From Candidatus Harpocratesius repetitus (lineage in GTDB: Archaea > Asgardarchaeota > Lokiarchaeia > Sigyniarchaeales > Promethearchaeaceae), in NCBI GenBank assembly GCA_021498095.1, contig JAIZWK010000001.1:1470001-1502000 (forward strand): a DNA stretch of 32,000 nucleotides, read 5' to 3'. Below are positions 3,948 to 9,130 of the stretch, piece by piece (the stretch's first letter is position 1; each line of letters opens with the position of its first letter). The notes beneath the pieces were generated by a model that saw only the letters and a program-made list of their open reading frames with translations, ran no database searches and had not been told where the DNA came from. Position numbers and translations under genes: made by a program.

Positions 3948-4042
3948 AGATCTTTTTTTCTTCTTTATATTTAACCAAATTTTGTAGATCTCGAAATCTT
4001 ATGTTAGAACTTCTCAGAATCAGTAAAATATAAGTCAAGAAA

Positions 4043-4138
4043 TGGGACGTATGCGATTCGAACGCATGATCAAAGGGTCTGGAGCCCTTCATCTTAGCCA
4101 GTTTTTAGGTAAGCTTCTAGCCACTAGACGAACGTCCC
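4043..4138 (-). tRNA. tRNA-Trp(CCA) with a 23-24 nt insertion (putative intron) in the D-loop
   Basis: Acceptor GGGACGT/ACGTCCC+A; D-stem GTCT/AGAT; anticodon arm AAGGG-CTCCAGA-CCCTT; T-arm ATGCG-TTCGAAT-CGCAT. The D-loop is 31 nt instead of 7-8. Confidence 0.9.
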
Positions 4139-4276
4139 ACGAATATGTATATAAACCCAGAAAACTTCCTAACATTAAAAATCAAGATGGCATTAAATTA
4201 AAGTTTTTTGTGTTTCATACATTTCTTTACTCGAAATAAGCGGAATATATTTATTTATTAGCTCTGAAGTGGATTT

Positions 4277-4495
4277 ATGGCCGAAATTATTATGCGAAGC
4301 ACGGTCACTTGTCCTCACTGTGGAGCAAATGAAACTTATACTCTTTCAGAATCTGTGTGAATTCAACAAATCTTGTGTAAAAATTGTGGAGAATTAATTA
4401 AAGGGCATATAAATCATCATGGATGACCGTGAATCTATTGTACCTTTGGAGATGTTCCTTGAATCGCAATTCAGCGCCAAGTATTGGGTATGTAA
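4277..4495 (+). CDS. GDCCVxC-like metal-binding selenoprotein, 72 aa, four Sec (U28, U50, U52, U62)
   Basis: MAEIIMRSTVTCPHCGANETYTLSESV-U-IQQILCKNCGELIKGHINHHG-U-P-U-IYCTFGDVP-U-IAIQRQVLGM-TAA. TGAs at 4358, 4424, 4430 and 4460 fall at or next to family Cys positions. SECIS at 4601-4652. Confidence 0.85.
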
Positions 4496-4600
4496 ATGAA
4501 TTAATTAAATTCAGTTGAATTCAACTTAAGAAACAGTCTTTTGGTGCAAATAAGTCCATGTTACAGGAATAATGTCATATATAAAAAAATCTTATTTACA

Positions 4601-4652
4601 TCAATGAAAATACTTCATAAATCTTGAGAAAATCAGGAAGAAGTGTTAGAGG
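4601..4652 (+). promoter_or_regulatory. SECIS element with apical mini-helix (type II-like) for the 4277-4495 gene
   Basis: TC-AAT-GA-A-AATACTTC-ATAAA-TCTTGA-GAAAA-TCAGGA-A-GAAGTGTT-A-GA-GG: AUGA/GA core, 8-bp helix with one G-U pair, AAA bulge and 6-bp mini-helix. Confidence 0.85.
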
Positions 4653-4953
4653 AAATGCGCATTTTAAATGTAAACAAGATTAAATAGAACCATGATATGA
4701 AAGTGACAATTTTTTTTATTTTTTGATTATATTGGTAAAATTTTGTTCCAAGTGAAGGAAGTTATATACTAAACTAATTTTTTTTTTTCAAATCGACTTT
4801 TTTTTTGGTGAACTGAATATTAAAATAATTCCCCAATTTCCATGATTTCGTGTGAAAAGGTAGAAAATGCAATATGTTCCCGTTCTTCATGCGAAATTTT
4901 TGATATGGTTAGGCTTATCTTTAAATAAACAGAAGTTCTTTATTGAGTAATAT

Positions 4954-7465: not shown

Positions 7466-9130
7466 ATGCCTTTACCATCTTTGAATATTTTTGAAAAAAT
7501 GCGGGGATTATATACCCCTGTAATAAATATTAGGCGTCACGTTCTCTCTGAAGTAGGAAGAATGGTTGTCGAAGGAAGACCTCCACATTACATTGAAGAA
7601 ATACCTTATCGAGTAATTCCTAAATCAACACCAACTTATCGTGAATCTGTTTTCAAAGAAAGAGCAATTGTTAGAGAGCGGGTACGCTTAGCTTTTGGTA
7701 TGGATTTAAAGGAATACGGGGCCCATGGACCAATTCATGATGATGAAGTTGTTGAATGCATGAAACCTATTAAAATTCTTAAGCGGCCTATTGTTAATGT
7801 GATTAAAATCGGCTGCGAACGCTGTCCAGAAGAATCTTATTGGGTAACAAATCTCTGTCGCGGTTGTATTGCTCATCCTTGTGTAACTGTTTGTCCTAAA
7901 AATGCAGTTTCAATTCAAAATGGGCGTTCAGTTATCAATCAAGATTTGTGTATTCAATGTGGGAGATGTGCACAAGTATGTCCATATAATGCTATTGCCT
8001 TCCGCGAACGACCTTGTGCTTCTGCTTGTGGTGTCAATGCTATCGGTTCAGATGAAGAAGGCTATGCAAAAATTAATTACGAGAAATGTGTTTCATGCGG
8101 TCTTTGCATTGTTTCATGTCCATTTGGTGCAATAGCAGAAAAGTCCGAAATTGCCCAGATTATTTCATCCTTAAAAGCTGGAAAGAGGGTTTATGCTGAA
8201 ATTGCTCCTGCTTTTGTTAATCAGTTTGGACCATTAGTCACTCCTCCTAAAATTGTTGCTTCTTTGAAAAAAATGGGTTTTAAAGATGTAGTTGAAGTAG
8301 CTGCAGGTGCAGATAGAGTTGTTTTACAAGAAGCTCATGAATTAATAGAACTCATAAAGAAGCGTAAATCATACAGAATAGAAACAAGTAAAAAGAAAAA
8401 TCAGAATCTACCAGATAATTTAGAAAGTAATTTGAATATAGATTCGAAAGAAGTAGAAGATTCAGTGATAGATAGTACTGTAAACAAGACTTTTGTTGGA
8501 ACAAGCTGTTGCACTTCTTGGACATTGGCTGCAGAAAAGAATTTTCCTGAAATCACCGCTGCAAATATCAGTGAATCATTTGCACCAATGGTAGAAGCGG
8601 CTAAAATAATCAAAGAAAAAGACCATGAAGCCGTTGTAGTCTTTATCGGCCCTTGTATAGCAAAAAAAGAAGAGTGTTTTATTCCAAAAGTTGCTGAAGT
8701 TGTCGATTACGTAATGACTTTTGAAGAATTAGCAGCAGTTTTTCAAGCTTTTCATATTGATCCCACCAAAGTACCTCCAGATAATGATCTTCAAGATGCA
8801 TCTTCCCTTGGACGGGGATTTTCAGTTGCAGGAGGTGTTGCTGCAGCAGTAATTAAACAAACAAAAAAGATGCTTGAAGCGGATATTACCATTCCTCATG
8901 TATCAGTTGATACACTAAAAGAATGCATGGCATTGTTAAAAAAAGTAAAGCAGAATCGACTTGATCCTGCTCCCCTTTTAGTGGAAGGTATGGCATGTCC
9001 TTATGGCTGTATAGGTGGACCTGGAACGTTAGCTCCCTTGAATCGGGCAAAACGCGCTGCCCAGAAATATGCAAAGGAAGCCATCCATGAATATCCATCC
9101 GATTTTTCTTCAGCTGAATCTGATACTTGA
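7466..9130 (+). CDS. [FeFe]-hydrogenase (group B-like) with ferredoxin-type Fe-S motifs
   Basis: H-cluster motifs TSCCTSW, GPCIAKKEE and EGMACPYGCIGG. Three CxxCxxxxC/CxxCxxC ferredoxin motifs (CRGCIAHPC, CIQCGRC, CVSCGLC). Confidence 0.9.
   Translation: MPLPSLNIFEKMRGLYTPVINIRRHVLSEVGRMVVEGRPPHYIEEIPYRVIPKSTPTYRESVFKERAIVRERVRLAFGMDLKEYGAHGPIHDDEVVECMKPIKILKRPIVNVIKIGCERCPEESYWVTNLCRGCIAHPCVTVCPKNAVSIQNGRSVINQDLCIQCGRCAQVCPYNAIAFRERPCASACGVNAIGSDEEGYAKINYEKCVSCGLCIVSCPFGAIAEKSEIAQIISSLKAGKRVYAEIAPAFVNQFGPLVTPPKIVASLKKMGFKDVVEVAAGADRVVLQEAHELIELIKKRKSYRIETSKKKNQNLPDNLESNLNIDSKEVEDSVIDSTVNKTFVGTSCCTSWTLAAEKNFPEITAANISESFAPMVEAAKIIKEKDHEAVVVFIGPCIAKKEECFIPKVAEVVDYVMTFEELAAVFQAFHIDPTKVPPDNDLQDASSLGRGFSVAGGVAAAVIKQTKKMLEADITIPHVSVDTLKECMALLKKVKQNRLDPAPLLVEGMACPYGCIGGPGTLAPLNRAKRAAQKYAKEAIHEYPSDFSSAESDT

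Follow-up and report, generated by a model that had tools for sequence, protein, structure and literature searches.

The window analysed here, a term that designates the whole stretch of 32,000 nucleotides, contains on its forward strand a small frame of 72 codons that runs from ATG to TAA and is crossed by four in-frame TGA codons. Its neighbours are an unknown ORF of 245 aa, a tRNA gene, and an unknown ORF of 135 aa; a ferritin gene and a [FeFe]-hydrogenase-like gene are found further away. Because of these four in-frame UGA "stop" codons, a gene of 72 codons is missed by ordinary gene finders: the ORF listing of the window (translation table 11) has no entry for it, and the longest piece without a stop in this frame is 27 codons. 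When read through with UGA as selenocysteine (Sec, U), the frame yields a peptide in which CPHC, U28, CKNC, HHGUPUIYC, and VPU follow one another, with a total of 5 Cys, 4 Sec, and 4 His. The Sec density is thus 4 in 72 residues (5.6%), the four Sec all falling within 35 codons and two of them being only one codon apart. The main features of the locus, all on the forward strand, are as follows.

4277..4495, forward strand: coding sequence of the 72-residue selenoprotein, with ATG at 4277 and TAA at 4493-4495, supported by the sequence, the match to model NF041374, homologues, dN/dS, and AlphaFold2
Within 4277..4495, forward strand: two halves of the coding sequence, namely a zinc ribbon (CPxC...CxxC) at the N-terminus and a HGUxUIxC...PU site at the C-terminus
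4358..4360, forward strand: UGA codon 28 (Sec28), TGA in 18 of 18 aligned homologues, in a column where the Cys forms, Asgard and bacterial alike, have a conserved Cys
4424..4426, forward strand: UGA codon 50 (Sec50), first Sec of HGUxU, in a column where most Cys forms have the Asp of GDCC and the CxC variant P0028 has Cys
4430..4432, forward strand: UGA codon 52 (Sec52), in the column of the second Cys of GDCC
4460..4462, forward strand: UGA codon 62 (Sec62), in the column of the Cys of the conserved VPC motif
4244..4259, forward strand: AT-rich, TATA-like stretch, 18-33 nt 5' of the ATG, seen by eye in the sequence
4710..4724, forward strand: runs of T8 and T6, 3' of the SECIS element described below, seen by eye in the sequence

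The evidence gathered below indicates that positions 4277-4495 very likely represent a genuine four-Sec selenoprotein gene, for which no expression or selenium-incorporation data are available. The two flanking features are inferred from sequence alone. The TATA-like stretch might be an archaeal promoter, which would leave a short leader or none, and carries little weight at 31% GC; the T runs might be an archaeal oligo-T terminator, giving an mRNA of about 450 nt.

The genome is a single contig of 4.36 Mb with 31% GC. A full-length actin (436 bits), three ESCRT-III (Snf7) genes, and SepSecS identify it as that of an Asgard archaeon. It is equipped with a Sec machinery that comprises a tRNA-SeC(tca), SelB (247 bits), SepSecS (443 bits), a SelD gene with one in-frame TGA of its own, and thus Sec-containing, and a PSTK candidate (94.8 bits) falling below a cut-off trained on methanogens. 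A genome-wide reassignment of TGA was considered and rejected, as this codon is an ordinary stop that ends 291 of the 1735 open frames of at least 300 codons (17%). Next to the four-UGA frame lies a tRNA gene (positions 4042-4140, reverse strand) whose acceptor stem and T arm are good and whose anticodon arm reads CCA (Trp). Its D arm is separated from the anticodon stem by an insert of about 16-25 nt, which would be a non-canonical intron; the same tRNA occurs as a continuous 74-nt gene in L025, a genome of the same genus, and its adjacency to the four-UGA gene is kept in the genus only. This tRNA was missed by a default ARAGORN run and by Rfam at its gathering threshold, and its reading as Phe(aaa) by ARAGORN with the -i option was regarded as implausible.

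Six-frame searches conducted on 100 relatives, and then on 400 genomes of the phylum, showed that 26 other genomes of this order, distributed over two families, carry a homologue. In all 27 genomes of the order with a match, including this one, TGA was found in the same four columns, and 26 of the 27 have exactly four Sec. With identities to the window protein of 27-55% (BLAST), or 30-58% in an alignment of 18 sequences (hereafter designated as A1), the sharing of a four-TGA frame is well beyond chance. All four columns are TGA in 18/18 aligned homologues and never TGG, and the invariant columns of A1 comprise C12, P13, C15, U28, C34, C37, N46, H48, G49, U50, U52, C55, and U62. The residues located after codon 28 are the best-conserved part of the protein. 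Downstream of the first TGA, dN/dS ranges from 0.18 to 0.38 (Nei-Gojobori, pairs with usable divergence), with similar values upstream, and the two genomes of the genus display a pS of 0.99 (synonymous sites saturated) for a pN of 0.22. The frame is therefore under purifying selection past codon 28. A fifth in-frame TGA was observed in a single homologue (L088, genome G006, contig C204), in which the last Cys of the second CxxC is also replaced by Sec (CGGU).

Outside the order, all-Cys homologues were identified in 34 genomes belonging to three other Asgard families. These have the form STIKCPFCG...C...CNNC...GDCCVFCSYADVPC and lack any in-frame TGA; a 35th match, in a fourth family, was weak and partial. 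Joint alignment of the Sec forms with Cys forms placed U28, U52, and U62 on Cys columns and U50 on the Asp of GDCC, so that GDCC becomes GUxU. One variant (P0028, HCTCVIC) has Cys in both the U50 and the U52 columns. In a maximum-likelihood tree, a well-supported branch separates all Cys forms from the Sec forms, apart from one long-branch sequence. This tree of a 70-aa domain is otherwise poorly resolved (76 of 140 forks left open), and it was used for the split between Sec and Cys forms alone.

The affiliation of the protein was provided by the model NF041374 ("GDCCVxC domain-containing (seleno)protein"), which the read-through peptide matched over positions 1-58 of 58 with 47.3 bits (E 1.8e-12, U read as C), above the curated cut-off of 40 bits. 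The same model reached 34 bits in a six-frame search with stops left unread, and Pfam returned generic zinc ribbons alone. A word-index protein search with the read-through peptide gave no match, and an exhaustive profile search was needed, in which 962 relatives reached E<=1e-3. Its five best matches were the Asgard form itself, found on short metagenome contigs with TGA translated as Trp and without a name in any source; those inspected among the remaining matches had Cys in the Sec columns, mostly with GDCCVxC. Hundreds of Cys-containing forms occur in metagenomes. One relative (P0007) is a tandem duplication of the GDCCVxC domain. The zinc-ribbon half of the family is present, with C12, P13, C15, C34, and C37 invariant in 18/18 homologues and in agreement with the alignment of Cys forms. 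In contrast, the literal GDCCVxC motif is absent and is replaced by HGUxU[VI]xC, the vicinal CC becoming U-x-U and the Asp becoming Sec, with 2-3 extra residues before or inside the motif and new invariant residues at Asn46 and His48. The four-Sec form is likely to be a divergent subfamily of NF041374, and is treated as such because the whole-domain model and the fold still match.

The family is also known as "hypothetical protein GOS_B", under which name it is listed with one Sec in a 2026 review of prokaryotic selenoproteomes (PMC13188914). It was described in the Global Ocean Sampling data with 11 Sec forms, 125 Cys forms, and no known function, the Sec forms having a predicted bacterial-type SECIS shown downstream of the UGA (Zhang & Gladyshev 2008, PMC2398784). 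The Asgard protein resembles GOS_B in its size range (ca. 60-100 aa), in the (S)T(I/L)TCPxCG...CxxC zinc ribbon, in the Cys-rich motif at the C-terminus, which closes with ...C(S/T)(Y/F)G(D)xPC (C55-T-F-G-D-V-P-U62 in the window protein), in the interchange of Sec and Cys within the family, and in its predicted fold (TM ca. 0.8). Yet, known GOS_B selenoproteins are listed with a single Sec, derive from a marine metagenome, and are shown with a bacterial-type SECIS, whereas the Asgard form combines four invariant Sec, with a fifth in one genome, and a eukaryote-like SECIS in the 3' UTR, is restricted to one Asgard order, and occupies its own side of the well-supported split in the tree.

These results can be set against the original prediction, which was made without database searches. 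The frame from ATG to TAA with four TGA, the peptide as written, and the longest stop-free piece of 27 codons held exactly, as did the assignment to an archaeon and to the GDCCVxC family and the proposal that three UGA sit on Cys columns with the fourth turning GDCC into GUPU. TGA/TGY interchange, which it had suggested looking for, was confirmed by the Cys found at Sec columns in other Asgard genomes, the HMM search that it had proposed gave a match to the GDCCVxC family, and the claim also survived one of the conditions that would have refuted it, namely a lack of purifying selection after the first TGA.

Downstream of the TAA, a single SECIS element was found in 4496-4700. Its features are as follows.

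4604..4651, forward strand: predicted eukaryote-like (type II) SECIS in the 3' UTR, with a fold energy of -10.4 kcal/mol
4604-4607 and 4649-4650, forward strand: SECIS core, AUGA and GA, respectively
4609-4616 paired with 4640-4647, forward strand: 8-bp helix of the SECIS, AAUACUUC/GAAGUGUU
4622-4627 paired with 4633-4638, forward strand: 6-bp mini-helix of the SECIS apex, preceded by an unpaired AUAAA

In the Asgard eSECIS-like model proposed by Huang et al. 2024 (PMC11227280), an AUGA...GA core encloses a helix of 7-15 bp and an A-rich apical loop or bulge, a mini-helix being optional. Positions 4604-4651 fit this type II model, and their role in Sec insertion is inferred. The same structural test is passed by 0.07-0.5% of random 200-nt windows of the genome. 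The element starts 109 nt past the stop, as compared with 0-45 nt in the other Sec forms. Its homologue in the same-genus genome L025 has a wholly different yet pairing stem with conserved flanks, and the start of the loop of the window element, AUAAAUCUUG, is common to the SECIS of SelD and to that of a HesB-like selenoprotein in this genome (motif AUAAA(U/C)CUUG). A SECIS-like element was present after 19 of 19 Sec forms and after 4 of 4 further ones, one of which has an AAGA core; among the Cys forms, only 1 of 16 had even a weak SECIS look-alike.

Covariation was examined in the sister family, whose 13 elements form a gap-free alignment. Their 8-bp helix is paired in 96.9% of cases, six of the eight pairs change on both sides, and shifting the 3' partner out of register lowers pairing to 20-58%. 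These elements also served to build a covariance model (R1), which gave no convincing match when searched against this genome; the window SECIS is of another subtype, whose apical region is longer. Owing to this difference from R1, the window element was judged by its structure, by its background frequency, and by comparison with the SelD and HesB-like elements. At gathering scores, Rfam detected neither a SECIS nor any other family, and lax thresholds produced only noise, such as the bacterial SECIS_5 at 16.9 bits for a gathering score of 50.

Several observations concern the termination of these frames. Four members of the sister family (L031, L034, L041, and L042) end in TGA rather than in TAA or TAG, and their SECIS starts 0-19 nt past this codon; the UGA that closes the L031 frame is that of the AUGA core itself. 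A fifth UGA is thus found in several homologues inside the SECIS core or just 5' of it, where it appears to be the true stop. In these frames, the first four UGA would be decoded as Sec and the fifth as a stop, which fits a minimum distance between UGA and SECIS for recoding. The AAGA core mentioned above is that of the five-TGA homologue L088, and the SelD SECIS of this genome has a likewise deviant core, ACGA.

AlphaFold2 modelling based on A1 produced a structure with a pLDDT of 92.3, which consists of four short strands bearing two CxxC knuckles (a zinc ribbon) followed by two short helices (residues 53-57 and 63-70). Family representatives of AlphaFold database (AFDB) clusters matched this model with a TM of about 0.8, and Foldseek searches against the PDB provided no match at E<=0.001 and only generic zinc ribbons. 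In the model, U28 is located in the loop between strands 2 and 3, U50 and U52 just before the first helix, C55 inside this helix, and U62 just before the second. Secondary structure and conservation together suggest, by inference, a single site made up of the four Sec, C55, and H48. The model has no thioredoxin fold, and this second site has no CxxC or UxxC redox box.

No conserved neighbours of the four-Sec genes were found beyond close relatives; the gene of the window is neither beside nor fused to merT, merP, merC, or merA, and searches of this genome for MerT, MerC, and MerA above cut-off found none. Among the bacterial relatives, one lies in a merR-merT-merP-merF-[GDCCVxC]-merA operon and another in a merT-merP-[GDCCVxC] arrangement. 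Fusions were also identified, with the GDCCVxC domain carried by the C-terminus of MerC in the metagenome proteins P0059 and P0135 (200 aa) and by that of MerT in the AFDB entry A0A5B8VQW6 (269 aa). A second context, as yet unexplained, is provided by the Asgard family f16 (L173, L174, and L177), in which the Cys-form gene overlaps or directly follows a gene for an M48 peptidase (Ste24-like, with a five-TM N-domain) and is accompanied by a divergently placed gene for a 248-aa membrane protein of no known family. The same M48/GDCCVxC/248-aa cluster occurs on a metagenomic contig (L058) with an additional SAM methyltransferase upstream. The possibility that the 245-aa ORF upstream of the four-Sec gene is the counterpart of this 248-aa membrane protein was tested and found not to be so.

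A selenolate site for soft metals was inferred from these mer operons and MerC or MerT fusions of bacterial relatives, which occupy the place of the Hg(II) modules known in mer systems (the HMA domains of the NmerA/MerP type and the Cys pairs of MerT, MerC, and MerA), either between merF or merP and merA or as a C-terminal extension of MerC or MerT. Hg(II) hand-off sites such as those of MerA and MerT typically contain a vicinal CC pair. The Asgard protein differs from these modules by its fold (a zinc ribbon with a helical hairpin instead of a ferredoxin-like HMA fold) and by its location outside any mer context. Binding of a soft, Hg-type metal by the second site, with Hg(II) as the best guess, rests on analogy and not on binding data, and the evidence falls slightly short of making it the probable answer. 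The link to Hg is further weakened in that it is supported by a subset of the bacterial relatives, other relatives, among them the Asgard Cys forms of f16, adjoining the M48 peptidase and the 248-aa membrane protein instead. The chemistry of the GUxU site might also differ from that of the Cys forms, since GDCC has become GUxU, two residues have been gained, and Asn and His appear as new invariant positions.

Taken together, these data are best accounted for by a four-Sec protein of the GDCCVxC/GOS_B family that is decoded by a SECIS and holds a metal site. This combined reading is likely, in the absence of data on expression, Se incorporation, or binding. The gene would be expressed as a short mRNA with a single eukaryote-like SECIS, a kink-turn hairpin located in the 3' UTR 109 nt past the UAA. 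This hairpin would recruit the archaeal Sec elongation factor loaded with Sec-tRNA(UCA), which would recode the UGA at codons 28, 50, 52, and 62, situated 144-246 nt 5' of the SECIS, and the UAA would terminate translation. The product would fold around a Cys4 zinc ribbon formed by C12, C15, C34, and C37, with a second site made of U28, U50, U52, C55, U62, and probably H48. This selenolate-rich site would bind a soft thiophilic metal ion, for which Hg(II) is the best guess based on bacterial relatives. Since the genome is devoid of MerA, MerT, and MerC to receive the metal, the protein is proposed to act as a stand-alone cytosolic scavenger or buffer of very high affinity. A bolder reading, which remains possible, is that one Asgard order has converted a Cys-based module for Hg or soft metals into a metal trap with four selenolates. 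If true, a single eukaryote-like SECIS would have to support four Sec insertions over a span of 35 codons. Judging by the type of SECIS, the order concerned is likely to be the one published as Lokiarchaeia/Lokiarchaeales.

The main rival explanation, which is possible, accepts the same gene and the same Sec decoding and assigns the Sec-rich site a redox or Fe-S role. An Fe-S cluster may be held by the five chalcogen ligands, or the site may undergo selenol/diselenide/selenenyl-sulfide cycling as in a small oxidoreductase. Several arguments favour this view: the Lokiarchaeal HdrA offers a precedent for Sec as an Fe-S ligand, most prokaryotic selenoproteins are presumed to be redox proteins (PMC13188914), and the UxU...C arrangement near the start of a helix would suit diselenide chemistry. 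The genome is also that of an anaerobe rich in Fe-S proteins, with ferritin and the [FeFe]-hydrogenase-like gene in the window itself. However, the predicted structure has neither a thioredoxin fold nor a CxxC or UxxC redox box in the second site, and the only functional contexts found for relatives are mer operons or fusions and the M48 cluster, with no redox or Fe-S assembly genes.

A role in Se storage or delivery, in which the protein would be an archaeal analogue of selenoprotein P valued for its Se content, is very unlikely. Such a role would be consistent with the very high Sec density (5.6%) and with several UGA codons per SECIS, as in SELENOP. Yet, the Sec positions are invariant and fall on the ligand columns of a fold that exists in an all-Cys form, which points to a structural or chemical role; a storage peptide would tolerate variation in the number and position of Sec, and exactly four are found in 26 of 27 genomes. 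In addition, no signal peptide was seen in the read-through peptide sequence. The protein also differs from SELENOP itself, with which it shares the decoding of several UGA per mRNA by a kink-turn SECIS in the 3' UTR and a high Sec density: SELENOP is a secreted and much larger protein with a thioredoxin-like domain, two SECIS, and a Sec-rich tail of variable Sec number, and is unrelated in sequence and fold.

The weakest alternative, that UGA is not read as Sec and that the frame stops at codon 28 (leaving a peptide of 27 residues), is a dead gene, or is read through by near-cognate Trp or Cys insertion, can invoke the lack of protein-level data, the tRNA-Trp-like gene located 137 nt upstream on the opposite strand, and the metagenome gene callers that translated TGA as Trp in some homologues, but is very unlikely given that the residues past codon 28 are the best conserved (dN/dS 0.18-0.38), that TGA never swaps with TGG and matches Cys codons in relatives, that a covarying SECIS accompanies the TGA forms only, and that TGA is a normal stop in this genome with the tRNA adjacency kept within the genus only.

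With the reading as a SECIS-decoded, metal-binding selenoprotein retained, the protein can be compared with the selenoproteins described so far in Asgard archaea. Five Lokiarchaeal families were reported by Mariotti et al. 2016 (PMC4989117) and seven Asgard families by Huang et al. 2024 (PMC11227280), a list repeated in the 2026 review, in which 119 families are tabulated and known prokaryotic families have one Sec, with 2-3 in a few (PMC13188914). Neither GDCCVxC nor GOS_B appears among the Asgard selenoproteins of these three publications, and no mention of GOS_B or GDCC was found in the 87 supplementary files of PMC11227280. The Sec count of the protein exceeds that of any of the 119 families in PMC13188914, and its density (4 in 72 aa) is unusually high. 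The closest parallels are the Lokiarchaeal HdrA, VhuD, and PrxL.1, which share with it the lineage, the decoding of several UGA by one eukaryote-like SECIS in the 3' UTR, and the presence of Sec in place of metal-ligand or redox Cys. HdrA has up to four Sec, with up to six UGA per SECIS (PMC4989117). These three proteins nevertheless belong to unrelated families of enzymes of 400-650 aa in which Sec represents a small fraction of the residues.

The four-Sec form thus represents a variant with several Sec, restricted to one lineage, of a (seleno)protein family that was already known but previously unreported in archaea. Since multi-Sec decoding by one SECIS was already known from the Lokiarchaeal HdrA and VhuD, it does not constitute a new kind of system. 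The further claims of the original prediction can be weighed accordingly. Its statement that the family was unknown among described archaeal selenoproteins held for PMC4989117, for PMC11227280 with its supplements, and for PMC13188914, and its proposal of a metal-binding protein received only indirect support, through the mer contexts of bacterial relatives. Se storage received no support, and the suggestion of an undescribed system failed, as the family was already named.

The Asgard selenoproteome nonetheless gains a family that has no entry in the 2016 and 2024 surveys or in the 2026 review. The gene may have been missed by earlier surveys because their searches were based mainly on homology, either with selenoproteins already known or with Cys homologues, and the annotation of Lokiarchaeal genomes misses it wholly; where it is called, it is only with TGA as Trp. 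As a small and well-folded model, the protein offers a means to study how one eukaryote-like SECIS supports the repeated recoding of closely spaced UGA in archaea, and what benefit selenolate ligands provide over thiolates in a metal site. The uncharacterised GDCCVxC/GOS_B family also gains a testable function, the mer-operon and MerC/MerT-fusion contexts pointing to soft-metal binding.

Other genes of the window deserve mention. The ferritin-like gene (Pfam PF00210, 105 bits) lies at 1649-2137 on the forward strand, 2 kb upstream of the four-Sec gene, and this adjacency is not kept in other genomes. The [FeFe]-hydrogenase-like gene, at 7466-9130 on the forward strand, encodes a product with Fe_hyd_lg_C and 4Fe-4S domains. 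Its best 80 relatives in species-representative genomes are all bacterial, among them a Leptospirales MAG (52% identity) and members of Clostridia and other groups (33-42%), which suggests that this gene was acquired from bacteria. Finally, the window contains a second hidden selenoprotein gene, belonging to the HesB-like selenoproteins, a group absent from the published Asgard lists (PMC11227280 and PMC13188914). Located at 511-807 on the reverse strand, it encodes a product of 99 aa with one UGA (RG-U33-CG) and is followed, about 21 nt past its stop, by a canonical SECIS at 445-503 on the same strand, with an AUGA, an 8-bp helix, a AUAAACCUUGG loop, and a GA.
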